Below are positions 5,306 through 58,649 of a stretch of DNA of 64,000 bases, in pieces. Position 1 is the first letter of the stretch. Each line of letters opens with the position of its first letter. Both the position numbers and the translations under genes were made by a program. The notes below the pieces were generated by a model. It had not been told where the DNA came from. It saw only the letters and a program-made list of their open reading frames with translations, and did no database searches. The stretch comes from Candidatus Woesearchaeota archaeon (GTDB lineage Archaea > Nanobdellota > Nanobdellia > Woesearchaeales > 0-14-0-80-44-23): assembly GCA_038874135.1 (NCBI GenBank), contig JAVZCZ010000001.1:383097-447096 (forward strand), read 5' to 3'.

Positions 5306-5780
5306 TCCTCACTTCTTCACTAATTACTGACAGAATTAGAATAAAGCAGCCAAGGCTTATCATGGAATCTGCGAGATTAAAAACTGGCCACGCCTTCAAA
5401 TCTAAAAAGTCCAGAACTGAACTGTAAAATATTCTGTCATAAAGGTTCCCGAGTATGCCAGCGCTTATGAGACCTAAAGATAGTGAGAGTTTGCTCTTGT
5501 TTATCCAAAAAGTTGAGGAAGCTGCAATTACTGCTAAAACGAACAGGGAGAATATAATTAAGAATCCGGCTGAGTGGGGAATTATGCCGAATGCTGCCCC
5601 ACTATTTCTAGTTGGCGTTATAAAGATTAGATTTGCTATAAGTGGGTAGGATTTGCCAATTGGAAATTTTAGAAATACCAAATGTTTAGTTATCCTGTCC
5701 ATCAGAAAACCTAAAGTTGTAAGTAAGAAGAAAGATGTTAGATTTTTTATATTGTGATTCTTATCCGCACGCTTCACCAT
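5292..5780 (-). CDS. lspA: lipoprotein signal peptidase (signal peptidase II, peptidase A8)
   Basis: Four TM segments with the conserved blocks TRNSGAAFG and NLYDRI...VLDFLD...[14 protein letters not shown]. Confidence 0.8.
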
Positions 5781-42999: not shown

Positions 43000-43485
43000 T
43001 TACTTAACATACTCCCTAGTCCAGTTTATAACAACATCCCGTGGTCCCATCTTATAGATTGTGAACCTAATGTTTGCAACCATCTTCTTACCAAGGGCTT
43101 TTTGGATTAGGTAGAATAGCCCAGTTCTTTCAGATAGATCTATAGCCTGCATTGAAGCAGAACATAATTTAATACTTAAGCAGTGAGCATCTTCTTCTTT
43201 CAACTTGAGGCAGAGCTGGTTTCCCGAGCCCTCACTGCCGTCCTCATCTGCCACATAGAGCTTTTCAACGCTGAATGGCAGTATATAATTTTTTGAAATC
43301 TTATCATATGAGCCGCCCAGGCAGACCCTGCTCACTGAAAGCTCTAAGTCTTCAAAGTTTTCAAAAGCCTGATTCTTCTCCTGCTGTGCAAGGTATCTTG
43401 AAAAGAAGGTGTATGCTCCTCCAAACAGGAGTCCTCCAAGAAGTAATCCGGCTACTATCCACATCCAAATTTCAACTGACTCCAT
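43000..43485 (-). CDS. N-terminally anchored small protein, last gene of the pilin-like block
   Basis: N-terminal TM IWMWIVAGLLLGGLLFGGAYTFF, then a Cys-containing globular part. It lies 1 nt downstream of the preceding gene. Confidence 0.5.
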   Translation of the reverse strand: MESVEIWMWIVAGLLLGGLLFGGAYTFFSRYLAQQEKNQAFENFEDLELSVSRVCLGGSYDKISKNYILPFSVEKLYVADEDGSEGSGNQLCLKLKEEDAHCLSIKLCSASMQAIDLSERTGLFYLIQKALGKKMVANIRFTIYKMGPRDVVINWTREYVK

Positions 43486-43486
43486 T

Positions 43487-43924
43487 TCACTCTATCCTAA
43501 CCAATTTTTTCTGGTAATCGTAAGAGATTATCGCCTTGTTGCTGGAGTCAAATGTTATTTGAAAGTTCGTCATGCCTGCCTTTGTTAACGAATCGCTAAT
43601 CTGCTCCTTTCTGACTGAGCTGCAGTCCGCGGTTATAATGTAGCATATCGGCTCATTGCCTTGTTGAAGGCGGCCTTGCTTTCCGTTTTCGTTACAGAGA
43701 CGGGCGTGCTTCACAATCTCACTTAGGAATTCGCTGCATGTAACATTTATTTTTTGTATGTCCCCTACTGGCTGTTCTGAACCGCATTCACCTGTTAGTC
43801 TGCAGATGAACTTCTGCGCACTTAGGCTGTTCTTCGCAATTATGCCGATTACTACGAAGACGGTTATTGTTGCCAGAAATATCAAAAAAGCGTATTGTAT
43901 GGTCATATCTGCTCTTCTTTTCAT
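43487..43924 (-). CDS. pilin-like protein (class III signal-like N-terminus), Cys-containing
   Basis: MKRRA|DMTIQYAFLIFLATITVFVVIGIIA. The tail (...ICYIITADCS...AIISYDYQKKLVRIE) resembles the C-terminal module of the large paralogs. Confidence 0.5.
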   Translation of the reverse strand: MKRRADMTIQYAFLIFLATITVFVVIGIIAKNSLSAQKFICRLTGECGSEQPVGDIQKINVTCSEFLSEIVKHARLCNENGKQGRLQQGNEPICYIITADCSSVRKEQISDSLTKAGMTNFQITFDSSNKAIISYDYQKKLVRIE

Positions 43925-43926
43925 TA

Positions 43927-44337
43927 TTACACCCTGCTGAAAACATCTAGCAGTTCTCTTAACATTGGAAGTATGAAGAAGTAGATTACTGCTCCCGTTA
44001 TTATTAGAGCTATTAAAATCAGTCCATATTTTAAGAGCGGATTCAGCTGCTCATTCTTTTCAACTAACTCTTCCTTAGGCTTTTCAAGTTCTATTTTCAC
44101 TGTTACTTCACTTTTTTTCTCCTGAGGCTCTTCAACCTTTTCCTGCTCTCTCTTTTCTTTGAGCGAATTTTCCTGTCTCAACTTTATTGTTATATCATCT
44201 TGGGATAGTTTTTGAGCGTTTCCAAAATGGTCAATCTCGTATATTCTGGACAGTGCTGACTCTTTTGAGAACTCATACGCTTCACGAAGTGTTTCAAATT
44301 CCCTTCTGCCCTTTTCACTGGATACCACATATGTCAT
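43927..44337 (-). CDS. tail-anchored E/K-rich protein, hypothetical
   Basis: Soluble N-terminus, a charged repeat region, and a single C-terminal TM YGLILIALIITGAVIYFFIL. Confidence 0.45.
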   Translation of the reverse strand: MTYVVSSEKGRREFETLREAYEFSKESALSRIYEIDHFGNAQKLSQDDITIKLRQENSLKEKREQEKVEEPQEKKSEVTVKIELEKPKEELVEKNEQLNPLLKYGLILIALIITGAVIYFFILPMLRELLDVFSRV

Positions 44338-44338
44338 T

Positions 44339-46456
44339 CTAGGTCACTACAACCTGGCGTTTAGTTGAATCGTATTCAACAAGTATGTTTGTATTTGTAT
44401 TTATATCTTTTGTGAAATTTATGTTGTCCGAATCTCCGCAGCCGTACTCCGAATCTCCAATTATGTGACACCATTGTCTATCCATCAGAATTTTTGCAAT
44501 GTCCCTCTCAGTTACTGCCCTTATGAAGTTATATTCTCGCGGCACTCCCAGTTCTGAGCAGAAGAAACTTGTTTTCTCCTGCCCGTATCTTGACTTGCGC
44601 CAGCAGTCTGCAATTGCTGAAACTATCTCCTCTTTAACAGGATACTTCGTATAGCTGAGTTTAAGATCGTCTGCTATCAGCTGAGTTGGGCCTGCTGTGC
44701 TAATCTTAAATGTAAATGTACAGTAGTCAGATGAACAGCTTTTTTCAAGCTCTTTAATTTCATCTGTCAAAGAAACTGTTTTTGACTCAGCATTTAAGTT
44801 TGTAGCTGTCATTACATCTTTACCTTCAATAGACAAGGTTACCCCTTCTGCTTTTATGTCGTAGACGATTTTTAGGTGGCTAATGCTAATTGTGCCGTCC
44901 CTTCCAGAGGACACTTCTAAAGGTATTATGCAGTTGCCTTCCTCATCTGGAGAGCATTCTGAGAGAGCTCTCTGCAGGGAATTTACAAAACCCTGCCCTG
45001 AAACCTTCCACGGAGAATTCACATTGTTTAGCTCGTCTTGGCGGTAGGCAAATTGTACTCCTGAAATGGAAAGCCCTATCTGGTTTGGATAGTTTGAGAT
45101 AACCATCTGCTTAACTGCCTCTGCTAATGCTGCCTCATCCCTAAATCCAAAGATTTTCCCCCCTGTAGAGGAAGCCAGCCTTTTCATCATACTAATTATC
45201 TGCCTACAATTGTTAATCACAACCTCGTTACAGTTTGGCGCTTGAACATTTATGCAGCTATAGGGATGTGAAGGACAGCATCCATCATAACAGCCTGGCC
45301 CGCTTCCTATGCTGAAGCCTTCTGGAGTGGTGCTGTCATCGTCTCCATAAACAACATTAACAAATATATTGTTCTGCTGAGCCTTCTGTATTGCCCTGTC
45401 GATTACTTCTTCCTCGTTTCCACTCATAGATACTGGCGTGGGGTATTTAGGAGGCGCATCATTAGAGCAGGGGCTGAATACAACTGATTGATAAACAGCC
45501 CCGTTGGGGTCCGAGTCGCTTATGAGGATTTCAATCCTCTTCGCATCTGAGAGCCAAGCATCTTCACCTTCTATCTGCGAGGATAGATAGTAAGATGCTA
45601 CACCCCAAGCTTCAGACGGCTGGTCTAAACCTATAGTTGAGTATGAACAACCAGCTGAAGAAAAGGAAAATTGGCATGTATTCATTGGAAGGCCTGTTTC
45701 TCTGAGTTGGTCGTATGTTATTTTCAGGTTCTTCGCTGGAATGGGACAGTTTTTTGCCACATTGGTTTTTCCGCACGGGTCTCCAACGCCGATTGCGTAG
45801 ACTCTAACTCTGTACTCTTCTATGTGCATTGCTGACAAGATTTTTGAAATATTACTTACTATTGAGCATACTGCACTCCACTCGTTAGTCATGCTTCCTG
45901 AAATGTCTATTGCAAAAGCGATATCGGTCTTTGTTGGATAGTTGCTTCCGTAAAGCTCTATGGAAGCATTTTTTATTATTGCATATTTTGGAATTTTTAT
46001 TAAGGCCGTGTTGGTTCCCCCTCTCAATGGATAGGGTGGCAGAGTAATGTTTGTTTCTCCAGAAGCAAAGGTTCTGAGCACAATGTTGTGAGGGGCCCCT
46101 ATAACTATTGAAGCGTTTTGAAGAATTGCATCCCTGTCCACTGTTATCTGAAAGGTCCGTTCAAGACGAGAATTACTGAATCCTAAGATTTTAGTGCTGC
46201 TCCCGTCTGAAAACTCAGATGATATAATCTGTTCTGCCTTTATGATTTTGACATCGTGAGGCCCAACGCCTGCGCAGAAGCTGTCCATTCGCGTGTTGTA
46301 AAAACGGGGAACATACTTGTGTGCAAGTTTGCAGTAGAACTCCTTACCGCTCCTCATCTGAGCTCCAAGGGAAAGCATAAGGGCTATTGCAAGAATGGTT
46401 ATCACTATTGAGAATACTACATTTATTGCAAGCTCACCTCTTTTTTTTACAGACAT
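44339..46456 (-). CDS. large pilin-like protein with von Willebrand factor A domain (paralog A, 705 aa)
   Basis: Class III-like MSVKKRG|ELAINVVFSIVITILAIAL. MIDAS motif DIAFAIDISGSMT (vWA roughly nt 45107-45928). Shared motifs CSPDEEGNCIIPLEV and a C-terminal 4-Cys module. Confidence 0.65.
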   Translation of the reverse strand: MSVKKRGELAINVVFSIVITILAIALMLSLGAQMRSGKEFYCKLAHKYVPRFYNTRMDSFCAGVGPHDVKIIKAEQIISSEFSDGSSTKILGFSNSRLERTFQITVDRDAILQNASIVIGAPHNIVLRTFASGETNITLPPYPLRGGTNTALIKIPKYAIIKNASIELYGSNYPTKTDIAFAIDISGSMTNEWSAVCSIVSNISKILSAMHIEEYRVRVYAIGVGDPCGKTNVAKNCPIPAKNLKITYDQLRETGLPMNTCQFSFSSAGCSYSTIGLDQPSEAWGVASYYLSSQIEGEDAWLSDAKRIEILISDSDPNGAVYQSVVFSPCSNDAPPKYPTPVSMSGNEEEVIDRAIQKAQQNNIFVNVVYGDDDSTTPEGFSIGSGPGCYDGCCPSHPYSCINVQAPNCNEVVINNCRQIISMMKRLASSTGGKIFGFRDEAALAEAVKQMVISNYPNQIGLSISGVQFAYRQDELNNVNSPWKVSGQGFVNSLQRALSECSPDEEGNCIIPLEVSSGRDGTISISHLKIVYDIKAEGVTLSIEGKDVMTATNLNAESKTVSLTDEIKELEKSCSSDYCTFTFKISTAGPTQLIADDLKLSYTKYPVKEEIVSAIADCWRKSRYGQEKTSFFCSELGVPREYNFIRAVTERDIAKILMDRQWCHIIGDSEYGCGDSDNINFTKDINTNTNILVEYDSTKRQVVVT

Positions 46457-46461
46457 GTCAA

Positions 46462-48654
46462 TCAGCTCACAATTATTGCTCCTTCCTTTTCAGAGTATTC
46501 TATAAGTACATTTCTTCCCGGAATTATTTTCTGAATTCTCCATTTTAACTGGTCGTACCTTCCGCAGTTAAAATCTGAGTTTCCAAGTGTTTCGCAAAGC
46601 CCATTTTCTTTTAAAATTTTCGTGATTTTGTCTTCATCTACATCTTCAACATAGGTGCAAGTTGAAGGTATAGTGATCTCATAGCAGAGCAGGTCTGAGT
46701 TGCGCTCTCCAAATCTTGCTTTTTCCCAGCAAGCAAGCGAGTATGCTGCAATAACTTCAGAAACGCTGCACTGCCCATATTCTATTTCAATTCCTGAGAG
46801 CACAATCTCTCCAGCGTCCTGTGAAGCTGCTGAGATTGTTACTTCGCATTTGTCCTTTTTGCAATTAGCTGCCTGTGAAACCTGTTTGGTTATGTCCAAC
46901 TGTATTGCTGGAGCATATGGCTTCATCACTTCAAAGTTTCCCACATCTACTCCAAAGACGTTTATTAGCACTCCTCTTATAGGAAGTTGGTAGTTTATAC
47001 TTAGATTTTCAATTGAGATTATTGGCTCAGAATTGAATATCATAGCGCTTATCTTCAGGGGAATTATGCAATTTCCATCCTGATCTGGAATGCACCTTCT
47101 CAGCCAGGAGTTCAATTTTTCAGAACTAATATGTGCTGTCCTGCCACTTTTGAATGAGCCGCTGCTCTGCCAGTCTGGCTGTGCCGAATTGCACGAATAA
47201 AATTTTATCCATGAAGATTTTTTCAAGCGAGAAATTATGGCGTTAATCATGAAGTTTGTATCTCCAAACTCCGATCCGAGCTGTTCTTCAATATTTGGAG
47301 CGATGTAAATCACGCTGCCATTGCCGTATGAGAACTCTATAACTGCCTGTCCAGGTCTTCCATAGTTTCGGTCTGCACATTTTAACTTAAGGTCCTTGTC
47401 AAGAGGAGATGGATTAGTTGAGTTGTAAACGAGGTCCGCAAGGACTTTTACCTTGGAGTTTGAATAGTTTACCTCAACGCAAGGAGTGTTATCATATATC
47501 ACAGAGTACTGCTTGTTTGAGCTTACTCCGTATTGCGCTTCTGCCTGTGCGGAGAATGTTATTCTTTGGCTCTCTCCACACCTGCCTCCAAAACCTACAG
47601 TTTCCCTGCACGGAACTATTGATTTATCATTGCAATTTTTTGGAATTGTTGCGTTGCACTCAGTTTTGTAATCTGCCTCATCAGGACTATTGCCTTTTGA
47701 AGGAATAAGTTGGTCTTGCTTCTTAGCCTGTAAAAGCCCCGGGCAGTTCTGGTATGGAGTTATTCTTTTGAAGTATGGCGTGATTTCTTTTTCAGGAAGT
47801 TGAGATTCGCTGAAGAGTTCAACTAGAAGGTTTATTGCCCAGCCGGTTACCATCAGCGTGTTTCCTTCTGCTATCCAATCCTTTAAGTATTCCCTGTCAG
47901 CACTATTTCCGATGGTTGTATTAAGCCCGCTTCCCACTATGAGCACAGAATGTTTTGCGAGTGTCTCTTTCCAGTTTGGGTCTCCCTTCCAGCACTTACT
48001 CTCATCATATGAGATGAGATAATAGTAGAGATATTTTCTCACATCATCAAAAATTCCGGAGCCGTACTGCTGGCCGCACTTGTTTGAGTAGCCCGTGAAG
48101 ACAAGCACTTCTGAACTTTCACCTTCCTGTTTAGAGTAGAAGTCAAAAGAAGCGTTAAGAACGTGGGCGTCCTTGGGAAGTTTCAGAAATAGAGTTTGCT
48201 CAGCTTCTTTTGAGAAGTCCAAAACTTTTGATGTGCTTCCATCGCTCAGAGTATTAACCCTTCCGAGAGAATATCCGAATATTGAAATCTTTGCTCTAGT
48301 TATGTTTGTAGCTGGGACTAGAATGTGAGCGGTAGCAGTTAAGCCAGGGCCTACACTTAAAACTTTTCTTTCAGAACCATCTGAGAAGCTTCTAAGGATC
48401 ACCTTTTCCATTTTGATTGTGCTGTTTTGCAAGCTATCATCTTGTGAGCAATATGCTTCTTCAGCTGTTCCGGAACTGAGCGAGAACATCACTTTTAAGG
48501 GCGAAAGTATACTGCAGTAAACGGAGCGGGATAAATACGGAAACTTTGAAAAGATTAACAGGAGAAAAATTGAAACTGCAATTATTCCTACAAATAGTGT
48601 AAATGCAAGAGTTATTGAAAACTCTCCTTTCCTGCTCATTAGTTTTAGCTTCAT
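46462..48654 (-). CDS. large pilin-like protein (paralog B, 730 aa)
   Basis: MKLKLMSRKG|EFSITLAFTLFVGIIAV. Repeated FSDGS...LNAS modules, CIPDQDGNCIIPLKI, and the C-terminal module ACWEKARFGE...CGRYDQLKW...VLIEY. Confidence 0.6.
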   Translation of the reverse strand: MKLKLMSRKGEFSITLAFTLFVGIIAVSIFLLLIFSKFPYLSRSVYCSILSPLKVMFSLSSGTAEEAYCSQDDSLQNSTIKMEKVILRSFSDGSERKVLSVGPGLTATAHILVPATNITRAKISIFGYSLGRVNTLSDGSTSKVLDFSKEAEQTLFLKLPKDAHVLNASFDFYSKQEGESSEVLVFTGYSNKCGQQYGSGIFDDVRKYLYYYLISYDESKCWKGDPNWKETLAKHSVLIVGSGLNTTIGNSADREYLKDWIAEGNTLMVTGWAINLLVELFSESQLPEKEITPYFKRITPYQNCPGLLQAKKQDQLIPSKGNSPDEADYKTECNATIPKNCNDKSIVPCRETVGFGGRCGESQRITFSAQAEAQYGVSSNKQYSVIYDNTPCVEVNYSNSKVKVLADLVYNSTNPSPLDKDLKLKCADRNYGRPGQAVIEFSYGNGSVIYIAPNIEEQLGSEFGDTNFMINAIISRLKKSSWIKFYSCNSAQPDWQSSGSFKSGRTAHISSEKLNSWLRRCIPDQDGNCIIPLKISAMIFNSEPIISIENLSINYQLPIRGVLINVFGVDVGNFEVMKPYAPAIQLDITKQVSQAANCKKDKCEVTISAASQDAGEIVLSGIEIEYGQCSVSEVIAAYSLACWEKARFGERNSDLLCYEITIPSTCTYVEDVDEDKITKILKENGLCETLGNSDFNCGRYDQLKWRIQKIIPGRNVLIEYSEKEGAIIVS

Positions 48655-48655
48655 T

Positions 48656-49531
48656 TTAACTTATTCTTATCTTCTTTGAGTTGTTTAAAAACTCTATCAG
48701 GATTGAGCCCTGCGGATGTATTGAAGTTAAATTCCATTCTATGTCATCTGAATCACCACACTCGTAGTCCAAGTTAGAGATTGCCCCGCATAAACCGTTA
48801 TCACGGAGATATTTAGTAAGCGTTGACTCATTTATGTTAAGCGGCGGACAGTTCCTTATCAGGATTGCCGCGCACGGAATATTTTCAGAGTAGCTTCCGA
48901 AGTTTGCGCTCTCCCAACAAGAGATTGTTGAGGCAGCAATTGCTTCAAGGAGGGGGCAATCCTTATAAGTTAGGGAGAGATCTTTAATCCAAACCTTGCC
49001 ACTGCTCCTTACACTTACATTTAAAATGCACGGGTACGCCTTGCATTTTGAGGAGCATTCTGCTAAATTTTTAACAAGTGAACCAGGGCTAGTATAATAT
49101 TTTGAGGGAACTGCTCCTTCTATCTGCCAGTCAGCATTTTTAGAACCGCATATGTAAAATTCTGCACTTCCAGACTCTGCCCTTGCTGAAAAGGAAAACC
49201 CGGTGAGGGTAGAATTTATTGGCAGGATGAAGTAGAAGGTGCTTTCACCATTAGAAGTAAAAGTTGTTGAATTGTCCGCAAACCTCTTAACAAAAATCCT
49301 GCTAGGTTTTACTTCAATGAAGTGCAGCATTGAAAATTCCCTGCAATAATCGGAACTTTGCCTTATTCCAGAGGGGAGGAATGATGCAGAAGCCACATAA
49401 AAAAATGTTTTGCAGTAAACCTGTTTTGCAAATACGGGCATCTGAAATGAAAAGAAGGATATGAGCAACACGATTGCTAAAACTGCTGTCAATCCGCCAA
49501 AGATTGCACTTATAGTAATTTCAGCCCTCAT
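48656..49531 (-). CDS. pilin-like protein (paralog C, short form)
   Basis: Start set to the ATG at 49531, preceded by GAGGAGG and forming an ATGA overlap with the upstream stop. MRA|EITISAIFGGLTAVLAIVLL, and the same C-terminal module SCWESANFGS...CGDSDDIEW...ILIEF. Confidence 0.6.
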   Translation of the reverse strand: MRAEITISAIFGGLTAVLAIVLLISFFSFQMPVFAKQVYCKTFFYVASASFLPSGIRQSSDYCREFSMLHFIEVKPSRIFVKRFADNSTTFTSNGESTFYFILPINSTLTGFSFSARAESGSAEFYICGSKNADWQIEGAVPSKYYTSPGSLVKNLAECSSKCKAYPCILNVSVRSSGKVWIKDLSLTYKDCPLLEAIAASTISCWESANFGSYSENIPCAAILIRNCPPLNINESTLTKYLRDNGLCGAISNLDYECGDSDDIEWNLTSIHPQGSILIEFLNNSKKIRIS

Positions 49532-49878
49532 TCCATCCTCCTCACAAGGCACTTTGAGGAGCTGCTGTAGATCTTAAGAGTGTAGCTTCCAGGTGCCAAA
49601 CTGTGAAATCCCTGAAACTCAAAATTGGAAGAGCTGTTAAGAACCCCTTCAGTTATCTCTGCCGTTATAAGGAAGCAGTCCCTCTCTGCAGGACCCCTGC
49701 ACAATTCGCAAAGACGGCTTATCTTGTGGTATAGTTGGCTGGCACTTCCCGAGAAGTTTTGAAGTTCGTCCTCTCGCGTTGGCTTTGCACCTATCACTTT
49801 GAAAGCAAAAGCCATAAGCAGGCCCATCACTGCTACTGCCACTACTAGAATTCCAACCTTCAGGTAAGTATCTTCCAT
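49528..49878 (-). CDS. small N-terminally anchored protein, Cys-containing
   Basis: MEDTYLKVGILVVAVAVMGLLMAFAF, then CELCRGPAERDCFLITAE. AT-rich TATA-like sequence lies upstream. Confidence 0.5.
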   Translation of the reverse strand: MEDTYLKVGILVVAVAVMGLLMAFAFKVIGAKPTREDELQNFSGSASQLYHKISRLCELCRGPAERDCFLITAEITEGVLNSSSNFEFQGFHSLAPGSYTLKIYSSSSKCLVRRME

Positions 49879-49942
49879 AATGCCTTATTTGCCCTTTCAA
49901 TTTAAATTTATTTCTCAAATTTTGATGCTGGAAGCATTCGTG

Positions 49943-52078
49943 CTAGCCAGTGGCTGAAATTCCTGAAGCCACCAGCATTTTTAGGAAAGTTGAACCTATC
50001 ACGGTTACGAATACGTAGACTATAATTGCAATAAGCACATTCTTGGCTATCTCCGCATCTCTGGATATCTCATCAAAGCCGTTCTCAACGCCGTTTGCAA
50101 GCTGCGATAATAGGAACACTGCTTCTATGGTGTAGATGCCTACTAACACCTGAAATATTGGCGGGGGAGTCACCCGTGTGAAGTTTATAAATTCAGTAAA
50201 AAATCCAGTATCCTGAGAGCCCAATGCGCTGCCTGCTAGCTTCTGCATTACGAGTTCCAATCTTCCCAACATGTCATAAAGGGATTTAATAATTACAAGG
50301 GTCAATGAGCCTACGATTCCTGCTATGAACGGTGCTAGGAACTTTGCCTGCATCCTTACTGAGGTGACTGTCTCTTCCAACAAGTCGTATATGAGCTCTT
50401 TTATCTTCTTCACATTGTCAAGGTAGACTGCAATCTTCTGCATTATATTGTATATAACCTGAGAGCCCTTCCTGGCGCTTTCAGTAAATATCCACATTAT
50501 CTCTTTTAAGAGGGTGGACGGGTACTCTTTTATTATGCCCTCTTGAGGGTGAAAGACTGCCTGTCCAAATGTCAGCCCGAGTGTCCGCATCTTTTCAAGA
50601 ATCCTATTAAAAAGGTGAAATATCTGCCTCTTTTTTAAGTTCATAACCTGATAATTGTTTACGAAGTTTTCAACTGCGATCTCAACCGGAATATTCTCTG
50701 TAAACTGGTTTGCTATGCTATACAGAGAGGCGTTTAAATCTTCTTCAATTTCAATTATCTCGTCCCTAAGCTTTATCTTCTGAACGCTCCTTCCATAATA
50801 GAAGAGAAATATGCCAACAGCAATTCCAACGGGTATTGTCAAGGTCATAAACATAACGCTCGACTCGTATTCGTGAGCCAGGGCTGGAGGAGGCGAAGCG
50901 TTTGCCGGAAGCTTGCTGGCTTCCAGGAATACGGGAATTGTAGCAGTGAAAAGGTGAAAAAGCCCCGGGCTCATTATCAAGAGTGCAGCTAAAATGGCAA
51001 CTGGGAGGACTGGAACAAGGTAAGACTTCTTTCTAACCAGCAGTCGGTATTTTCCCTTCGGAGGAAGATTAGGATTTCCAGAGATGTCTGGTGCTGAGAA
51101 AGCTCCTGGCCTCTTTGCAAGTATCCTGTTGGAAAAGAAGTATATCAGGGAGGGCAGTATTACGATGTAGCCGAAAAAGAGGTAGGATATTTTAATACTT
51201 GAAGACATGAATACGCTTATGATTGGAAAAGCAATAAGTCCTATGAGTGGTAGCATTAAGCCGAAGGTGTTTATTATCATTATCGGATTCTTCAAGTCGT
51301 GAGCGTAGTATTTCATCTTTTCATAAGTGTCCTGGAGTAGAGTGGAAAGGGCCTTATCAAGTATTGCAGATTGGTGTTCCTTGTCCGGCTGGGTGGTTAC
51401 GCTTAGAAGTATCATAAACGACTTTACAAAGTCGGGATTCCTCTTGAGCCAGAGCTCCATATAAAGTTTGAAGCCGTCGTGAATTGAGGATATCTTTCCA
51501 CCATCTAAAAGCCAGAGTATTCTCTTGAAGTCTCTGCCGAGTGGTCCATTAAGATGCTCTGTGGCAAAGGCTATTGCGTTTTCCAGCACCGGATTCACGC
51601 GCATGTAAATTGTTATATAGAGGAGAGCTAGTAGTGATTCCTGTTGGGCTCTTATCTTGGTAATCTGACTTGAGAATGCTGGGTATGTGTAAGCTATATA
51701 AGCTAAGAACATTCCCGTGAAGATAAAGAAGAATGCCAAGTCAATCCAGCCCAGAATTATTAGAGGAAGTGCTGACATAATGCCGAGGAGCACTGTTAGG
51801 ATTGCAGCTGCTAGCACCTGCTTAGGTCTTATGTGGAGCCTTGCAATTTGGATATCCTCATACATTTCCGGTTGAGATTCATCTTTTACATCTATAAAAG
51901 AAAGAAGTTTTCCTGCAAAATCAGCATATTTTTCAAAAAAAGTGGGAAGTGCAGCCTCCTCTTGCTCTTCCCGAGCAAATGAGGAAAATTGACTGGAAAC
52001 AAATTCCGACTGCTGCCCCTGCCCGGAAGCCAGCCTCTTTTTAACTTCTGCTTCTATCTCTTCAATGCTTTTAGGCAT
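49943..52078 (-). CDS. FlaJ/TadC-like (T2SS-F family) platform protein, paralog 2, with no adjacent ATPase
   Basis: Aligns by eye with the 30778 ORF (FATEHLNGPLGRDFKRILWLLDGGKISSIHDGF vs FASEHLAPPLSIDIKKILWNVESGKYPSVKESL) and has the same TM/cytoplasmic-domain alternation. Confidence 0.6.
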   Translation of the reverse strand: MPKSIEEIEAEVKKRLASGQGQQSEFVSSQFSSFAREEQEEAALPTFFEKYADFAGKLLSFIDVKDESQPEMYEDIQIARLHIRPKQVLAAAILTVLLGIMSALPLIILGWIDLAFFFIFTGMFLAYIAYTYPAFSSQITKIRAQQESLLALLYITIYMRVNPVLENAIAFATEHLNGPLGRDFKRILWLLDGGKISSIHDGFKLYMELWLKRNPDFVKSFMILLSVTTQPDKEHQSAILDKALSTLLQDTYEKMKYYAHDLKNPIMIINTFGLMLPLIGLIAFPIISVFMSSSIKISYLFFGYIVILPSLIYFFSNRILAKRPGAFSAPDISGNPNLPPKGKYRLLVRKKSYLVPVLPVAILAALLIMSPGLFHLFTATIPVFLEASKLPANASPPPALAHEYESSVMFMTLTIPVGIAVGIFLFYYGRSVQKIKLRDEIIEIEEDLNASLYSIANQFTENIPVEIAVENFVNNYQVMNLKKRQIFHLFNRILEKMRTLGLTFGQAVFHPQEGIIKEYPSTLLKEIMWIFTESARKGSQVIYNIMQKIAVYLDNVKKIKELIYDLLEETVTSVRMQAKFLAPFIAGIVGSLTLVIIKSLYDMLGRLELVMQKLAGSALGSQDTGFFTEFINFTRVTPPPIFQVLVGIYTIEAVFLLSQLANGVENGFDEISRDAEIAKNVLIAIIVYVFVTVIGSTFLKMLVASGISATG

Positions 52079-52096
52079 AATACACCACTATGTTTT

Positions 52097-53899
52097 TCAA
52101 GATACTGAAGGTTGATCTGGGGGAGGTGGAGGTGGGTTAGGCGGATTGTATGGAGGACTTGGTGGCTCGGGTGTAGGATTTGGCTCGTCCTTGTTATGAA
52201 CAAGTATTCCTTCAGCATAGAAGTCATTCACGCTTTCTATGCGTTTGAGATTGTAGGTTCTTATTTTTGTAGGGCTGCACTCTAATGAGATTACCCTTTT
52301 CAAAATAATGTTTTTCCCATCAAAACTGAATGCATAATCCCCTCTTTCAAGAGGTAATACTTTGAGATTTGGCGTCTCCCCTTTTGAATTCTCAGGAGAG
52401 ATTGAAGCCCAGCCCTTTAGAGTGTATATTGGATGCTCGTCAGTAAGTCTTAAAAATGAGCCGTCTTCAAAGGATACGGTGCAAAGGTGGTCCCTATATG
52501 GAGATTCAAGCTCCAGCACCCTTGCTGGAACATGCTTTCCAGTTTTAAAATCATAGCCGAGCACCAGCTCTCCAACTCTGACATCTTCAATATTTTTTAA
52601 GCTTCCATCAGCCATTCTTATTCTAGTTCCAGCAGGAAAACAGGAGGAAGGCGTATCACCTGTTGGCTCACAATGTTCTGGGCAGTCGCATTCGGGCTCT
52701 GGCGGGTTCGTAGTTCTGGTGAGGAATACGTGCACTAAAAGGTTGAACCTCAAATTTTCAAAACCGCTTTCAGAGATGGGATGCTGATACTTTGTGTCAG
52801 TACAGGTTATATTCATTATAAAGTCTATATTGTGCCTCTCTCCATAACCGTAGGGGGAGAATGGGCAGGTTATCAGAGTGTTAGGTTCAAGCTGTGTTCC
52901 GAAAGGAATCTCAACTTGGGGCTGCTCTGGAGGGCTTGGGATGTTCTGAGGATTTTCACATTTTCCGTCAGATTTTTGCCCGCTCAAACAGTTCTGCTTA
53001 AGATCTGGATAAGGGCATCCTGAAGCTGGCCAGATAACTCCGCATCCTGCCGGGCAGTTTATAGCTGCGCTGCACAATATTTCGGTTTTTGCATAAAGGC
53101 ATGGAAGAGTGTAGGTACACTTTACATATGAATCAAATGAGTCTTGAAGATGCTTCAATGACGAATCTGCTATTTGTTTAACATATTCCTCATTTATAAC
53201 ATATGCTGGACATGCACTTGTTCCAACTCCGTAATAAGTCATAAGTTTATCACAGCTATATTGCGATACGATGTTCTGCCTAGCCCATTCCTCAATCTTC
53301 CTGTAAAGGTACCAGTAGCGCAGGGGATAAGCATATGACTTGAACGCATTCTGCTCCTGAACCTCTTCTCCAGAATCAACTTCCTTAACAACTGCTGGAA
53401 TTGTACCCCTTCCCTCAGCCAAGAAGCCTTCATCTGCGCCTGCGGAACCGTCCATCTCATAAAGGTCTGTATCTGAAACGAGTATTTCAATAGATGATAT
53501 GTCACCCGCATCTTCAATCTTAAATTTTCCAAGATCCTCTCCACGTATTGAAGCAAGATACTGGTTAGTGTAGATGATTGCAAACCGGCTAAGATTACTC
53601 TTTGCTTCCCAAAGTTTAGGCGGGATTGAAGAGGAGTAGCTTATCCAGTATGAGTTCTGAGCACCTGCTCCAGAGCTTGCGCTGTCATAGGATGCACGTA
53701 TAAGAGCGTCTCTGAAAGAGTGAAAGGAGTAAGTTCTCAGAATTTCAGAGTAGCTGTTCAGCTGAGATTTCTGCTCTTGAGAAGTTGTAAATTCAACTAC
53801 AGCCTTCCTATTCTGAAGATATACCAGGTAGAATATCAGAATTACAAGTGCCACGAAAAAGAGCAGCATAAATGTTGATGCGCGCCTATTGAACTTCAT
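52097..53899 (-). CDS. pilin-like protein with Cys-rich middle, C-terminal Hint domain and poly-Pro tail
   Basis: Start set to the ATG at 53899, preceded by GAGGTGA (the track starts at a TTG at 53920). MKFNRRA|STFMLLFFVALVILIF. Hint blocks as listed in the next feature. Confidence 0.65.
   Translation of the reverse strand: MKFNRRASTFMLLFFVALVILIFYLVYLQNRKAVVEFTTSQEQKSQLNSYSEILRTYSFHSFRDALIRASYDSASSGAGAQNSYWISYSSSIPPKLWEAKSNLSRFAIIYTNQYLASIRGEDLGKFKIEDAGDISSIEILVSDTDLYEMDGSAGADEGFLAEGRGTIPAVVKEVDSGEEVQEQNAFKSYAYPLRYWYLYRKIEEWARQNIVSQYSCDKLMTYYGVGTSACPAYVINEEYVKQIADSSLKHLQDSFDSYVKCTYTLPCLYAKTEILCSAAINCPAGCGVIWPASGCPYPDLKQNCLSGQKSDGKCENPQNIPSPPEQPQVEIPFGTQLEPNTLITCPFSPYGYGERHNIDFIMNITCTDTKYQHPISESGFENLRFNLLVHVFLTRTTNPPEPECDCPEHCEPTGDTPSSCFPAGTRIRMADGSLKNIEDVRVGELVLGYDFKTGKHVPARVLELESPYRDHLCTVSFEDGSFLRLTDEHPIYTLKGWASISPENSKGETPNLKVLPLERGDYAFSFDGKNIILKRVISLECSPTKIRTYNLKRIESVNDFYAEGILVHNKDEPNPTPEPPSPPYNPPNPPPPPPDQPSVS
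52193..52642 (-). other. Hint (Hedgehog/intein-like) autoprocessing domain within the 52097 ORF
   Basis: Starts CFPAGTRIRMADGSLKNIEDVRVGELVLG, has the block-B-like RLTDEHPIYT, and ends FYAEGILVHN followed by K. The next 31 residues are Pro-rich up to the stop. Confidence 0.65.
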
Positions 53900-53909
53900 A
53901 AAAATCACC

Positions 53910-54428
53910 TCAGCCTGCAATCACAAGCAGTGCACCCCTCTCGTAGCTTCCCGAAGAGCAGGGTCTTGGAAATCTGAAATCATAGGATACATATTCAGTG
54001 AATTCTGGAGTACCAGATTCGGAGATTAAAGAGGAGGTGAGAAAAAGCGGTTTAGAGCCCTGGCTGTCTGATTTTAGGATTAGAGCCCAAGCATTTTTCC
54101 CGTATGTGGAGTCAAGCATTGCTCGTAAAGATTGAATTATGTTTATCTGTCCATTCCCGTAGTTTGCAGTTTCCACTCCGTAACAGGAATAAACACCCAA
54201 AAGTTCTTCTATTGGGATTCCCAAAGAGTTTCCTGCTGCATCCTTGGCGGTTATGTATGGAAATGAAAATCCTGTGGAGGCAACTCCTGATACGCGCATA
54301 TCTCTAAGTATTGCTTCTGCCCTGTTAAGAACAGATGCAGAGGTCTGCATCCTCACAAAGATTGCAATCAGAACTATTGTTGCCACAAGAACTATTATGC
54401 CTACGAACTCTGAGGACTGCGCCCGCAT
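53910..54428 (-). CDS. small pilin-like protein
   Basis: MRAQSSEFVGIIVLVATIVLIAIFV: a short charged leader followed by a hydrophobic helix, as in archaeal type IV pilins. Confidence 0.55.
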   Translation of the reverse strand: MRAQSSEFVGIIVLVATIVLIAIFVRMQTSASVLNRAEAILRDMRVSGVASTGFSFPYITAKDAAGNSLGIPIEELLGVYSCYGVETANYGNGQINIIQSLRAMLDSTYGKNAWALILKSDSQGSKPLFLTSSLISESGTPEFTEYVSYDFRFPRPCSSGSYERGALLVIAG

Positions 54429-54477
54429 ATCAACCCCTTTTTTGTGAATTAAATTCTCTTTCGCATATTTAAAGTTT

Positions 54478-55212
54478 TCAGTATTTTACTCTTACTGAAT
54501 TTGAACTTTCATTATAAGAGATTAGCACAAGAGATTTTCCTTTGGGAATTGTGAAGTTTCCAACACTGCATTCAAACCTAGGAAAGAAAAGGTATTCCCC
54601 AACATAGAAAGTGTTTGTAAAGTTATCATACCTTATGTTATAGTCTGAAATAAGAATGTGCTGCATCCCCTCATGGCTCCTGCAAGCCTGTTTTATCTTG
54701 CCATAAAATGAGGGGATGCTGCCGATGTAAGCGGTAATGGATGCAAATCCGGGATTTATAGTTGGCACCTCCGAAGGGTATCTTATAGCGATAGGAAGTG
54801 CTATTGTTAAAGTATCCTCTGCAAACTGCGGCTCATTCAAAAGGCCTATGCGCCACTCCTTCCCCGTAAGACTATCTACAACTCTGAATGTGTAGAGAAA
54901 GTCATACTGCTCTACGCAGGATATGTCCTCGTTACCCCTGTTGTAGTAGTCCAGCTTTTGCTGGTATAATACCGCCTGAGACGCAGTGGTCCAGCTTCCC
55001 TCTTTCTCCTTATATGCGAAACAATCGCTGGCAATCATCGCCTTGAGAAATGAGGTTGCAAGAGCATAATATTCAGATGTAAACTTGGCTTTCTGAGAAG
55101 AGGTTCTACTTCCTAGCAAGGTCATTATTACAAACATTAAAAAAATAACCGTGAATATGGCGAATATTGACTTTATCGTAAGATCCTCAGAGCCCTTTTG
55201 TGAAATCCTCAT
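54478..55212 (-). CDS. pilin-like protein
   Basis: MRISQKG|SEDLTIKSIFAIFTVIFLMFVIMTLL. Its start forms a 4-nt ATGA overlap with the stop of the upstream gene (55209 ORF). Confidence 0.5.
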   Translation of the reverse strand: MRISQKGSEDLTIKSIFAIFTVIFLMFVIMTLLGSRTSSQKAKFTSEYYALATSFLKAMIASDCFAYKEKEGSWTTASQAVLYQQKLDYYNRGNEDISCVEQYDFLYTFRVVDSLTGKEWRIGLLNEPQFAEDTLTIALPIAIRYPSEVPTINPGFASITAYIGSIPSFYGKIKQACRSHEGMQHILISDYNIRYDNFTNTFYVGEYLFFPRFECSVGNFTIPKGKSLVLISYNESSNSVRVKY

Positions 55213-55982
55213 CTTTCACCATTCACCTTCGCTCTTATTATCAAAAAAGCCAACACTAAAATTATACAAATTGCTACTAACGCAGCAATGAGCAGCTTGG
55301 AAGAGTTATCCTCTCTTTTCTGAATAGTTTTAATACAATCGGGATCTTTGTTTGGAGCGCAGTCAGGATCACAGATGCCGTCCTTAACCATATCGCAATA
55401 GCCGTCCCTGCTTCCAGATTTGCAGTCCTGCGGACAGCTAAGATATGTTTCAGTAGGATCGCAGACTGAGTTACCACAGCCTGAAGGGGATATGTTGATA
55501 GGGTTGGTTTCAGTTGGAGTGCTTGTGCTGCAATCTGCTGGACAGCTTATTTCACTTTCATATTTCTCACAAATGCCGTTTACTCGGCAAAAATTAGAAG
55601 TTTTAAAAGAAAAAATTTCTACACCTGATTTAAAGATTTTTATAGTGTCCGCATTGGCAAAAAAAGGAACTTTTAGTTCAATCAGAGTATTATTTGAGCT
55701 GATAGATACTGGCGGATCACTCATTATATTAAAACTAACAAAAAAGGGAAGTGAATATAACTCTTTATCTTCAGAATACACTTTTAGGTAATATTTTGTA
55801 GGAGAGTCTGTTGGAATCGTTTTATACCCTTCAAGCACTTTAGCATATGTTAAGTTTATTTCTCCAGTATTCCAGAATAAAATCTGCATGTCGTAGATTT
55901 TTTCATATGCCAGAGTCATATCTATTGAAATAAGTAGAAATAACAAAACTGTTGCACTTATTATGAGATTTTTCATTTTCAT
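55209..55982 (-). CDS. secreted Cys-rich protein with C-terminal TM anchor
   Basis: Start set to the ATG at 55982 (TGATG overlap with the upstream stop). Sec-type signal MKMKNLIISATVLLFLLISIDMTLA, then CGNSVCDP...CPQDC...DGICDPDCAPNKDPDC, and a C-terminal anchor. Confidence 0.55.
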   Translation of the reverse strand: MKMKNLIISATVLLFLLISIDMTLAYEKIYDMQILFWNTGEINLTYAKVLEGYKTIPTDSPTKYYLKVYSEDKELYSLPFFVSFNIMSDPPVSISSNNTLIELKVPFFANADTIKIFKSGVEIFSFKTSNFCRVNGICEKYESEISCPADCSTSTPTETNPINISPSGCGNSVCDPTETYLSCPQDCKSGSRDGYCDMVKDGICDPDCAPNKDPDCIKTIQKREDNSSKLLIAALVAICIILVLAFLIIRAKVNGER

Positions 55983-58033
55983 CAGCCACAATATTGTTGT
56001 ATTATTCTACTTCTTAAATAAGTATAGCTTGTGGAAGTGAATGCATATCCTTCGCTGCATCCATAACGGCATGCATCCATAGAGCACATTATGCTATCCT
56101 TTTCTGGAACATTTGGACAGCAATAAAGCTCCTCTCCTTCTGGGACATAACAATTATCGTAGCAGTCCCTTCCGCCAACAGTATACCAACCGCTAGGGCA
56201 AGAACTGCACCTGCCTCCTCCATAACCTTCATCACAAAGTCCAAAGGTGTGTCCCATTTCGTGAGTGCACACATTAGTAATGCGAGTACCTGAAGATACG
56301 AGTGCAGGGTAGTTTAGGTAGGTATATCCGCCAATACAACTTTCTCCTTCATTATACACGCAGTCCCCTGCAACTACACCTATGATTCTATCATACTTTC
56401 CCGCGTACCCCCAGGAAGTTGCACATTGTTGTATTATGTTTAGCGCATTACCATTTCTTCTGTCAGTTTCCGATACTGGACAAATTTTAGTATCTTCAAA
56501 TAAGTAGCACACTCTATCTGGACATTCCTTGAATGGACTTAGCGAAACCCAAGCGTCTCTCGCTGCCTTGGCAACATTTCCAAAGTTGCTTATAGGATCT
56601 ATTTTTATAAATAACATAGTAAACGAGCAGCTGTTTTTGCATGTATTTCCATCCCAGCTTTTTCCATTTGGACAGCAAGCCTTGTCATTACTATTCTTAG
56701 GATTTGACATGCATTTCAAGCCAGAGTTGCACTCTGCATCGCACTCACACCTTTGCCCTTCTGCTTTTCCTCCTGGTGTGATGCAGTATAAGCCGTTCTG
56801 CTTTTGGCACTTTTTTGTTCCGGAGGGACAGCATCCGCTGCTTTCTGCTCCTACACAGTTTGGACAGCATTCAGCAGTGCACTTGCAGTCATTAGGAGAG
56901 TTTTGGCAGTTTTCGCTGAATGGCTCACTAGTGTTGCAGATGCCATCATTTTTGTAGTTTGTGCACGCCCCGTTTTTGTAGTAGCTGTCTGGGGGGCAGC
57001 ATCTAAATGTGCCAAATCTTGTATCGCAGATTAGTTTTTCTCTATCTTGTGAGCATTGGCAGTCCTGAGTGCACTGCTGCCCCTTTGCTGATAGCTTCGT
57101 CTTTTCAATGCAGCCTCTTTCATCTAGGAAGTTTTGAATTGCTGGGCAGTCCGCCTTGCAGATCTGTGAATCTGAGCATTTGCAGTCCTGAAAGAGGGGG
57201 TAGTCTAAGCAGCTTTCTCCCCTGTTTGGCTCGCAAATGCCATTCCCCTTGTGAGGGCAGTCTGCATCATACTGGGTGCAGTCTGGATCGCAAACTCCAT
57301 TGGTGCCGAGGCAGTCTGGATCACAGATGCCATCCTTAATATTGTTAGTTGCTGGGTCACAGATTCCGTCATTTTCATAGTCTACGCAGTCAATATCATA
57401 AACGCCCTTGTCAAAGTTTGTATAGCATGCTGGAATGCAGATCTTGTCTGCATCTGCAGGGTCTATTCTACCATTCTTGTTGGTGTCCAAGCAGTAGGGG
57501 TTGCATACTGATTTTTCCATTGGACTCTTGCAAGCTGGATCGCAGATTCCGAGGGCAATACAGGCAGCATCGCACTTGTCATCTTCAAGGTTGCACTCCT
57601 CAGCTGCATTCGCCCTCGTTATTATGATGTAGTTATCTTTTTTGTAGATGTGTATGATTCCTGAGTTTTCAATATTTGATGGTATTACTACTGAGTTTCC
57701 TGGAAAGAAGTATGTTGTGCTAGTGAGGTTGTTGATTGCAAAATGAGCCAGAATCCTGTTCTGGCTAATGTTTATGGTATAGATTAGTGGGTCTTTGAGC
57801 GTTATTACGTATTCAACATTTGCGGGAGTGGATGCTGCTTTTTCTATTGCACTCTTTAAATCCTCAACTACTGAGATTGTGTAATCAATCTCAACCTGCT
57901 TCGCCTGTTGGAGAGCCAGGTTTCTTAGGACGCCTACTATTGCAAGAGAGATGAATATCATTCCTATTATAAGGATTGAATTTGTTAAAGTGGCGCCTCT
58001 TCTTCTGGTCCGGTTATTCAAAAATATTTTCAC
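55982..58033 (-). CDS. pilin-like protein with Cys-rich (DGICDPxC) repeat region and C-terminal HExxH metalloprotease-like domain
   Basis: N-terminus ...NNRTRRRG|ATLTNSILIIGMIFISLAIVGVL (GTG/TTG start). Cys-rich region about nt 56624-57601. HEMGHTFGLCDE at nt 56249-56263 and following. Confidence 0.6.
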   Translation of the reverse strand: MKIFLNNRTRRRGATLTNSILIIGMIFISLAIVGVLRNLALQQAKQVEIDYTISVVEDLKSAIEKAASTPANVEYVITLKDPLIYTINISQNRILAHFAINNLTSTTYFFPGNSVVIPSNIENSGIIHIYKKDNYIIITRANAAEECNLEDDKCDAACIALGICDPACKSPMEKSVCNPYCLDTNKNGRIDPADADKICIPACYTNFDKGVYDIDCVDYENDGICDPATNNIKDGICDPDCLGTNGVCDPDCTQYDADCPHKGNGICEPNRGESCLDYPLFQDCKCSDSQICKADCPAIQNFLDERGCIEKTKLSAKGQQCTQDCQCSQDREKLICDTRFGTFRCCPPDSYYKNGACTNYKNDGICNTSEPFSENCQNSPNDCKCTAECCPNCVGAESSGCCPSGTKKCQKQNGLYCITPGGKAEGQRCECDAECNSGLKCMSNPKNSNDKACCPNGKSWDGNTCKNSCSFTMLFIKIDPISNFGNVAKAARDAWVSLSPFKECPDRVCYLFEDTKICPVSETDRRNGNALNIIQQCATSWGYAGKYDRIIGVVAGDCVYNEGESCIGGYTYLNYPALVSSGTRITNVCTHEMGHTFGLCDEGYGGGRCSSCPSGWYTVGGRDCYDNCYVPEGEELYCCPNVPEKDSIMCSMDACRYGCSEGYAFTSTSYTYLRSRIIQQYCG

Positions 58034-58115
58034 CTCTTTTTAAATCCCGTATTTAGAAAAAGATATTTATAAATCCTTCTTTATTGTAAGATTAAATGGA
58101 ATGAAAAATAAGAAA

Positions 58116-58649
58116 TTATCTCTCTGTAAATCCAAACCTTACCTTCCAGTTCATCTGGCTTTCAGTGTCTAATCCGCACCCGTCATCTAAGCCCCTAGCA
58201 GCCAATTGGTCATATGTTGCTAGGTTGTTGTTGTCTGGATCTAAGAGTGTGTTCTTACAGGTTTCTCCAGTATATTTTCCGTTCTGACATTTATCCACTA
58301 ACACGAAGCAAGGCACCTTGTCCTCACAGAACTGCCACTTTCCATAAGTCACTTTATCCTTCAAATTTTGATTGCCGTTCCAATCAACCTGTATTGTTCT
58401 CTTGCAGAACTCAATTAGTGTGTTGTCATCATTTATTGCTTCGCATAACCCTTGACAGGTCTGTATTGCCTTATCAATTGTCGCCTTTGTAAAGTACTCT
58501 GTTGAAGCACCTTCCATCTTACCAGAGCTCTTCTCAGTAAACTTGAAGAATAGGCTAAGCACGACTAGCGAAATTATGAGTAGTACGAAAAGCCCGAATA
58601 TCATTTGAAGCTCCTTTTCTCCCTTTCTTGAAAAGAACACTTGTATCAC
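58116..58649 (-). CDS. small Cys-containing pilin-like protein, first gene of the block
   Basis: With the GTG start: MIQVFFSRKG|EKELQMIFGLFVLLIISLVVLSLFF. An alternative ATG at 58604 is preceded by AAGGAG. TATA-like tttatatattg lies about 30-40 nt upstream of 58649. Confidence 0.5.
   Translation of the reverse strand: MIQVFFSRKGEKELQMIFGLFVLLIISLVVLSLFFKFTEKSSGKMEGASTEYFTKATIDKAIQTCQGLCEAINDDNTLIEFCKRTIQVDWNGNQNLKDKVTYGKWQFCEDKVPCFVLVDKCQNGKYTGETCKNTLLDPDNNNLATYDQLAARGLDDGCGLDTESQMNWKVRFGFTER

Follow-up and report, generated by a model that had tools for sequence, protein, structure and literature searches.

Sets of several minor pilins or pseudopilins encoded together with a vWA protein, such as the minor-pilin/PilY1 tip of type IVa pili (T4aP) and TadE/TadF/TadG, are thought to prime filament assembly and to mediate adhesion. 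Bacterial pilins with grafted functional modules (vWA, lectin, peptidase) are also established (PMC8179133), as in Streptococcus sanguinis, where PilB bears a vWA adhesin module and PilC a lectin module (PMC8179133, PMC9934059). Here, we describe an archaeal locus related to these systems in a 64-kb stretch of DNA, referred to below as the window, from a Candidatus Woesearchaeota archaeon (contig JAVZCZ010000001.1 of assembly GCA_038874135.1). A block of 14 consecutive open reading frames (ORFs), from g01 (58116-58649) through g14 (43000-43485), occupies positions 43000-58649 of its minus strand. It probably encodes the subunit and platform half of an archaeal type IV filament (type IV pilus-like) system that is lineage-specific to Woesearchaeota. 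The type IV filament features found at the sequence level are subunits with class III N-termini, a T2SSF platform and a T2SSE/FlaI/TadA ATPase linked to the platform. Modular pilins are represented by g11, which joins a class III N-terminus to a vWA domain, together with g06, which carries a Hint domain, and g02, which carries a metzincin-like motif with weak profile support.

As in S. sanguinis PilB and PilC, a class III signal and a hydrophobic helix are placed on large module-bearing proteins, including a vWA domain with the DxSxS motif; a further likeness is that PilB and PilC are low-abundance subunits encoded beside their machinery. In contrast to PilB/PilC, the block is archaeal and gathers at least five or six modular proteins in a single locus, its extra domains appear to be inserted before an extreme C-terminal four-cysteine (4-Cys) module instead of being grafted C-terminally, and its pilin parts are not recognized by the curated families of Pfam and NCBIfam. 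The joint encoding of several minor (pseudo)pilin-like proteins and a vWA protein also recalls the T4aP tip and TadE/TadF/TadG, and the ATPase found in the window resembles TadA and FlaI about equally. However, PilY1 is a non-pilin with a beta-propeller, a fold not detected in the block, and Tad systems combine the half-size platforms TadB/TadC with a small Flp pilin, unlike the full-length platforms of 711 and 735 aa found here. No similarity to TadE/F/G was retrieved in the Pfam and NCBIfam scans of the block.

Among archaeal filaments, the Epd pili (“system 1”)/subsystem 4A (Makarova et al., 2016, PMC4858521; Sivabalasarma and Albers, 2026) resemble the block in their many predicted minor pilins, their large predicted adhesins, the occasional presence of two platform genes and their occurrence in some DPANN genomes. 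In those systems, however, the adhesins are DUF2341/PilY-like, for which Pfam scans gave no match among the block proteins, and the platform genes are adjacent, whereas here two full-length paralogues lie in separate operons. Term searches of PMC4858521, a census of archaeal type IV pili, and of a recent survey of archaeal type IV filaments (bioRxiv 10.64898/2026.04.22.720090) found no description of a Woesearchaeota locus like this block, and none of the block itself was found in the literature searched. The initial annotation of this DNA did not recognize the composition as a described system, a view that stands for the locus but is too broad for the principle, since module-carrying pilins are already known in bacteria (PMC8179133) and the composition is therefore not novel in kind. 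What is notable is the number and size of the pilin-like genes, the insert-tolerant 4-Cys pilin family, the two platform paralogues with one ATPase module, and the invisibility of the system to Pfam and NCBIfam.

Prepilin-like N-termini across the block

The fourteen minus-strand ORFs of the initial annotation, with junctions ranging from small overlaps to an 82-nt gap, were recovered at their coordinates: measured between the longest ORFs, the junctions from g01 to g14 are 82, -10, -4, 49, -11, 18, 64, -25, 1, 5, 1, 2 and 1 nt. A near-identical block (99-100% protein identity) is present in a second assembly, GCA_038873055.1. When all proteins of the block were scanned against Pfam and NCBIfam, almost nothing was returned except Hint and weak protease matches. 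In those block proteins that are secreted or pilin-like, Cys makes up 4.3% of the residues and N-x-S/T (N-glycosylation) sequons occur 0.86 times per 100 aa, versus 1.2% and 0.49 in the soluble proteins of the window, a richness of the non-platform proteins that would be expected for surface proteins.

Nine block proteins present, at their N-terminus, [KR][GA] followed by a hydrophobic stretch, and these are the nine class III-like N-termini quoted in the initial annotation. A six-frame rule was applied to the window, requiring [KR][GA] no more than 25 residues from the start and a mean Kyte-Doolittle value of at least 2.0 over the next 18 residues; eight of its nine matches fall inside the block, which makes up 24% of the window (binomial chance estimate ~1e-4). 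The ninth class III-like block protein, g04 (SQKG/SEDLT, with the slash marking the predicted cleavage site here and below), narrowly fails the hydrophobicity window.

Related loci were obtained by scanning the platform alignment against one genome per GTDB species, which returned 24 loci (designated by L numbers), all from Woesearchaeota-type metagenome-assembled genomes, some of them under placeholder names. In the orthologues, which come from as many as 15 species, the class III motif is retained at each position, with G/A at -1, K/R at -2/-3 and a mature start of the form [DEQ]-[ILV]-[ST]-[ILV]. The families have their own versions of it: [KR][KR]G/[ED]K[SE]LQ in g01 (e.g., EKSLQMIFGL), K[GA]/[DE][IL]S[IV] in g09 and g11, a KK[GA]/[DE]LSLN type in g13, [KR][KR]A/Q[ST][SA]EF in g05 and [KR]KG/xxxLTxK in g04. 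From these patterns, the block N-termini appear to behave as class III (prepilin) signals.

The last gene of the block, g14 (43000..43485, minus strand; 161 aa), encodes a pilin-like protein without a leader, which starts MESVEIWMW and has an in-frame stop three codons upstream of the start. In most relatives, g14 is also leaderless, starting MESVEVWMW shortly after an in-frame stop, while the orthologues of L017 (2150-2686) and L018 (16514-17023) have leaders, KKG/QESVE and KKG/TESVE, respectively, before ESVEVWMW. Because the leaderless g14 starts exactly where the KKG leaders of L017 and L018 end, the predicted cleavage site is marked. The first 32 aa of g14 are 59% identical among orthologues versus 31% for the remainder. 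As a side observation, g14, which has Glu at positions +2 and +5, could be regarded as a pilin-like protein that is naturally “pre-processed.”

These N-termini could also be ordinary uncleaved signal anchors, in which case the block would encode type II membrane surface proteins that neighbor a polytopic protein, without any filament assembly. The positive-inside rule indeed predicts a basic residue before a transmembrane (TM) helix, a peptidase gene was not found in the window, and g08 and g14 have no canonical leader. Nevertheless, different species retain the G/A at -1 and the polar pattern at +1 to +5, the leaderless g14 begins precisely where cleavage is predicted, and the block is repeatedly linked to a T2SSF platform and a T2SSE ATPase, and once to a Peptidase_A24, so that we consider simple anchoring very improbable.

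The highest N-terminal conservation of all families is found in g01 (58116..58649, minus strand; 177 aa; probable GTG start at 58640, MFFSRKG/EKELQMIFGL), whose class III-like motif is conserved in 13 orthologues and whose first 32 aa are 66% identical versus 34% for the remainder (14 sequences); in the pilin-like families other than g01 and g14, this N-terminal identity is 31-40%. Since bacterial sigma-70 and intrinsic-terminator scans have no meaning for an archaeon, TATA-like and oligo-T motifs in the block were read by eye, and we found that g01 has its own TATA-like box (TTTTATATA) and an oligo-T run after its stop, and that a second TATA-like box precedes g02. L020 and L023 have duplications of the gene, and beside the platform of L003 no block gene other than g01 was found. 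The conserved N-terminal helix, the promoter- and terminator-like signals, the duplications and the L003 neighborhood therefore make g01 the likely best candidate for the major pilin.

Three further pilin-like proteins are encoded on the same strand: g04 (54478..55212; 244 aa; SQKG/SEDLTIK), g05 (53910..54428; 172 aa; MRA/QSSEFVG), whose orthologues in L008, L009, L020, L023 and L028 reach 379-434 aa, and the small g13 (43487..43924; 145 aa; KRRA/DMTIQ), with KK[GA]/[DE]LSLN-type N-termini in 12 orthologues.

Module-bearing subunits and the shared C-terminal module

The clearest modular protein is g11 (44339..46456, minus strand; 705 aa), which starts with KKRG/ELAIN and continues with a beta-sandwich, a vWA domain, two beta-sandwiches and a C-terminal module (44342-44638). 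The vWA/integrin beta-I-like domain, located at ~45092-45931, has the motif DISGS (DxSxS). A phmmer search of g11 against PDB gave no match, and a 14-sequence family profile matched the I-like domain of integrin beta-6 (E 0.0044), in an alignment that includes the DxSxS motif. The alignment used for the AlphaFold2 (AF2) model was shallow, because the word-indexed homologue search gave only four g11 relatives, with the single sequence and the 14-sequence profile alike. The model (predicted local distance difference test, pLDDT, 71.7) starts with an N-terminal helix and a confident beta-sandwich, followed by an alpha/beta domain, a further two beta-sandwiches and, at the C-terminus, an alpha+beta module. 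In a Foldseek search with this model, all of the matches at E<=1e-3 (21/21) were integrin beta chains, followed at weaker E-values by TFIIH p44, Sec23/24, MDN1-MIDAS and Ku, all vWA-containing. As modeled, the domain inserted in g11 is of a vWA/integrin beta-I-like type, with a conserved DxSxS motif, so that profile and fold agree with the vWA domain initially annotated.

A paralogue of g11, g10 (46462..48654, minus strand; 730 aa; C-terminal module at 46465-46761), has a different central insert of unrecognized fold. Searched against PDB, g10 gave no phmmer match and its family profile gave chance-level matches only. Most related loci match only residues ~510-730 of g10, and a library search retrieved four full-length or fragmentary relatives, 36-50% identical (P0065, P0066, P0069 and P0075). 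The smaller g09 (48656..49552, minus strand; 298 aa; probable start at 49531, MRA/EITIS) carries a beta-rich insert before its C-terminal module (48659-48955); its K[GA]/[DE][IL][ST][IV] motif is conserved, and in most loci it follows g07-g08.

The C-terminal 4-Cys module that the initial annotation had noticed is indeed common to these three proteins of 298, 730 and 705 aa, and g10 and g11 additionally have N-terminal “FSDGS” domains, rich in beta structure, in common. When 1.84 billion representative proteins were searched with a profile built from the three window modules (E<=0.001), only 139 clusters were retrieved, in which the module lies nearly always at the extreme C-terminus of proteins falling into size classes of ~175-200, 280-335, 400-500 and 590-770 aa. 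A strict [KR][GA]/hydrophobic N-terminus (e.g., MKG/LALETIG) is present in 79 of the 139 module proteins, and the remaining ones are mostly N-terminal fragments or have Ser at -1. From sequence and secondary structure, the simplest reading would be that the pilin body consists of the N-terminal helix together with the 4-Cys module, between which g09, g10 and g11 carry inserted domains. We do not claim g13 for this family because its hhalign comparison with the module was not significant.

The N-terminus of g02 (55982..58033, minus strand; 683 aa) is also pilin-like, with a probable TTG start at 58021 (MNNRTRRRG/ATLTN), and is followed by Cys-rich (9.8%) DxDC-type repeats and, toward the C-terminus, by the metzincin-like motif HEMGHTFGLCD (56231-56263). 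The HExxH protease-like domain proposed initially is thus present as a motif, while its profile support, from Reprolysin_5 (E 0.0033) and an M6 domain (E 0.0044), stays below the cut-off; the g02 family profile gave only chance-level matches against PDB. HExxHxxGLx[HD] is kept in four of the eight g02 orthologue ORFs, two fragments included (L006, L012, L020 and L028), and is absent from those of L018, L019 and L023 and from the L017 fragment. Separately, the Cys/Asp-rich repeats of g02 and g03 (DGICDPDC, CPxDC) resemble calcium-binding thrombospondin-type-3-like repeats, with no profile match.

In g06 (52097..53920, minus strand; 607 aa; probable ATG start at 53899, MKFNRRA/STF), the pilin-like N-terminus is accompanied by a conserved domain of ~400 aa without recognizable function and by a Pro-rich tail. 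The orthologues align over residues 1 to ~417 only, and the family profile of the N-terminal domain gave chance-level matches only against PDB. The Hint domain reported in the initial annotation is a bacterial-intein-like insertion (52193..52642, minus strand; CFPAGT ... LTDEH ... GILVHN, then K) that passes the Pfam cut-off (PF01079, E 4.5e-7, 30.1 bits vs 29.7) and also matches NCBIfam intein_Nterm (E 0.0014). This insertion is absent from all 11 g06 orthologues examined, in which the CxC motif runs straight into the Pro-rich tail, and appears to be a precise insertion in that tail, seen only in the source lineage. It has Cys1, the TxxH motif and the terminal HN. However, the +1 residue is Lys instead of a Cys/Ser/Thr nucleophile, which rules out a splicing-competent intein and places the domain with the cleavage-type bacterial-intein-like sequences; the g06 Hint would then probably self-cleave rather than splice.

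Platform, ATPase and peptidase

The FlaJ/TadC/PilC-type membrane platform of the block is encoded by g07 (49943..52078, minus strand; 711 aa, at least seven TM segments). Along its entire length, this protein shares 30% identity (E 5e-99) with the 735-aa protein encoded after the T2SSE ATPase of the window, and its homologue P0042 (35% identical, E 7.6e-127) matches T2SSF (5e-8) over two stretches. The AF2 model of g07, from a 46-sequence alignment, reached a pLDDT of 79.4 and a predicted template-modeling score (pTM) of 0.73. Foldseek related it to the cytoplasmic domain of the T2SS platform EpsF (prob 0.99, target TM-score 0.68), to SpoIIIAB (GspF-like, prob 1.00) and to a PilC model, with target-normalized TM-scores for EpsF/SpoIIIAB of 0.66-0.70. 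The g07 family profile retrieved only chance-level matches against PDB. Via transitive homology and modeled fold, g07 belongs to the T2SSF platform family, and the mid-block position of a second FlaJ/TadC-like platform, as initially proposed, is supported by the identity to its paralogue, by the P0042 match and by the AF2 model.

The ATPase itself, a FlaI/TadA-like secretion ATPase (32991..35327, minus strand; 778 aa), lies outside the block. It matches Pfam T2SSE (E 4.4e-15) and, below the cut-offs, NCBIfam FlaI (2.3e-37; 129 bits vs 550) and TadA (1.5e-33). Directly downstream of it is the second platform paralogue (30778..32985, minus strand; 735 aa; T2SSF E 0.017). Our scans agree with the initial annotation that the block contains neither an ATPase nor a prepilin peptidase; its description of the platform as an “orphan” does not really fit, because a likely ATPase is found 15 kb away in the window and adjoins the platform in relatives. 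Indeed, the unit g07-g08-g09 is convergent to an orthologue of the window ATPase (60-68% identical) in the five species of L013 (the same record as L005), L017, L022, L024 and L027. In three cases (the window, L030 and L032), it is the second platform paralogue that comes after the ATPase instead. The same ATPase module thus occurs with either platform type, which suggests that one ATPase may serve two platforms. The window ATPase is likely the motor of the block system. In L032 (7612-9986), we also observed an ATPase orthologue in two pieces (residues 26-552 and 535-768) separated by a gap of ~100 nt, with no full-length gene called; the split could stem from a frameshift or from faulty assembly, or the gene could be a pseudogene.

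A 242-aa coiled-coil protein (35992-36720, plus strand) and three paralogous proteins of ~190 aa with 5-6 TM segments (37544-38089, 38109-38696 and 38703-39278, minus strand) travel with the ATPase in L013, L017, L022, L024, L027 and L032. No family was assigned to them in a Pfam scan, and they are candidate accessory components of the filament system. The gene for an M15 D-Ala-D-Ala dipeptidase (VanX/VanY-like; 36725-37381, minus strand) lies inside this accessory span and outside the ATPase module.

With FlaI as the best NCBIfam match of the ATPase (E 2.3e-37), an archaellum or another motility apparatus could be envisaged, as could a DNA-uptake or DNA-transfer filament. The FlaI match, however, remains at 129 bits against a cut-off of 550, archaellin, FlaH, FlaF/G and FlaC/D/E were not detected in the block and scanned neighbors, and neither DNA-binding components nor nucleases are linked to the block. 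An archaellum was rejected on the lack of archaellins and FlaH in this scanned region, and we regard this whole group of readings as extremely improbable.

A prepilin peptidase is found in L023 (14621-15544, plus strand), where a Peptidase_A24 (PF01478, E 4.9e-11) lies 150 nt after the g14 orthologue, on the same strand. The linkage that the initial annotation had suggested looking for, in relatives, is therefore observed for the FlaI/TadA-like ATPase beside the platform in five species and for Peptidase_A24 in one.

Conservation, assembly and possible function

Many of the 24 species loci keep the order from g01 to g14 or show it only rearranged, which bears out the synteny across Woesearchaeota for which a check had been proposed. 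It is essentially complete in L018 and L023, shortened by contig ends in L006-L010, L016 and L025, and rearranged in L012, L020, L028 and L029. The widely shared components are g01, the N-terminal/Cys-rich part of g02, g03-g05, the N-terminal domain of g06, g07-g09, g11 with its vWA domain, g13 and g14. The enzyme modules emphasized in the initial annotation do exist but are mostly not part of this core: the g06 Hint occurs in one lineage, the g10 central insert in few relatives and the g02 metzincin motif in 4/8 orthologue ORFs.

The remaining block proteins are g03, g12 and g08. g03 (55209..55991, minus strand; 260 aa) is not pilin-like and has a signal peptide of the Sec type, repeats rich in Cys and a TM anchor at the C-terminus (TM segments 9-27 and 234-252); orthologues occupy the same position in L006, L007, L012, L018, L020, L023, L028 and L029. 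g12 (43927..44337, minus strand; 136 aa) is tail-anchored, with a soluble N-terminal part, a charged linker and a C-terminal TM segment, and has orthologues in five loci (L008, L009, L016, L025 and L029). g08 (49528..49878, minus strand; 116 aa) has a single N-terminal TM segment with the atypical N-terminus MEDxFx[KR]xG and lies directly after the platform in 12 loci.

The conservation of the membrane-anchored Sec protein g03 and the tail-anchored g12 would also suit a pseudopilus- or bindosome-like display or secretion device, in which the same machinery builds, in place of a long adhesive pilus, a short cell-bound structure that anchors or releases enzymes and binding proteins at the surface. 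With 244-730 aa, most class III proteins of the block are large, and they bear modules of a binding or enzyme-like kind. As in the Sulfolobus bindosome (Bas), the proteins with class III signals are large functional ones of the surface and not small structural pilins. A recent survey also proposes that binding proteins bearing class III signal peptides (SPIII) functionalize archaeal type IV filament machineries (bioRxiv 10.64898/2026.04.22.720090). In contrast to Bas, no solute-binding-protein domains were detected in the Pfam and NCBIfam scans, the ATPase fails the BasE model (48.9 vs 1000 bits), and the block includes small pilin-like proteins, g01 and g14, with highly conserved N-terminal helices. 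A bindosome proper was rejected on the first two of these points, and the broader idea of a display device seems unlikely to us, a type IV pilus-like filament remaining the preferred reading.

The block lies between a MacB/FtsX-type ABC transporter gene upstream and a TatD gene downstream. According to the mapping on relatives, neither adjacency is kept in the related loci, and a functional link with the transporter was rejected because this neighborhood is not conserved. A mobile element or virus was also rejected: GC content is even over the window, the block is conserved across species, and no integrase or capsid was found among the scanned proteins. Elsewhere on the minus strand of the window, we noted an ORF resembling signal peptidase II, judged by eye (5292-5780), a secreted lamin-tail-domain protein (8611-9936) and a protein with a DisA-type diadenylate cyclase domain (28439-29734).

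In the assembly scheme that we propose, a Peptidase_A24-type prepilin peptidase encoded elsewhere in the genome would cleave the nine prepilin-like proteins after the conserved G/A, while g14 would be made already “mature.” Driven by the FlaI/TadA-like ATPase encoded 15 kb away, the platform g07 would then pull the processed subunits out of the membrane and polymerize them. We infer a stoichiometry in which g01 would be the major subunit and g02, g04, g05, g06, g09, g10, g11, g13 and g14 would be low-abundance minor pilins that prime assembly, at or near the tip. By analogy with the minor-pilin tip complexes of bacteria and with S. sanguinis PilB and PilC (PMC8179133, PMC9934059), the large pilins at the tip would display their modules, namely the vWA/integrin-I-like domain of g11, the metzincin-like domain of g02, the beta-sandwiches and, in the source lineage, the Hint of g06, and the filament would likely serve adhesion to a surface or to a host cell.

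Several observations weigh against this interpretation. No Peptidase_A24 was found in the block or in the 64-kb window, either in profile scans or by tblastn with the L023 peptidase, which also retrieved nothing in the other fetched loci; a peptidase adjoins the block in only one of the 24 related loci, L023, which has the whole block. The platform g07 has no direct Pfam or NCBIfam match, and its Foldseek E-values (0.3-0.9) are not significant despite probabilities of 0.69-1.00. The class III signals were judged by our own rule rather than by a trained FlaFind/PilFind model, the pilin fold of the block subunits is a putative one, and g01 is the likely, not the certain, major pilin. Finally, adhesion or host contact is a plausible role that we infer for an uncultured organism.

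A more specific scenario, which we consider quite unlikely as a whole, is a host-engaging “grappling” pilus of episymbiotic Woesearchaeota, whose tip, a complex of several insert-bearing pilins, would combine the integrin-like vWA adhesin with the metalloprotease and, in some lineages, a self-cleaving Hint. Such a tip would bind the host envelope and breach it locally, and a single ATPase module with its three membrane proteins would switch between the two platform paralogues and thus between two filaments.

Woesearchaeota and other DPANN archaea are abundant, most of them are uncultured, and a host-attached life is assumed for them, although the molecules by which they attach are largely unknown. 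Because Pfam and NCBIfam fail on the pilin, platform and accessory families of this system, automated surveys of archaeal type IV filaments may miss it. With about ten pilin-like genes, several of them encoding proteins of 600-730 aa, the block carries the “modular pilin” principle from bacteria into archaea, and it provides a concrete candidate for an attachment apparatus, with a vWA adhesin domain, a probable major subunit and predicted processing sites.

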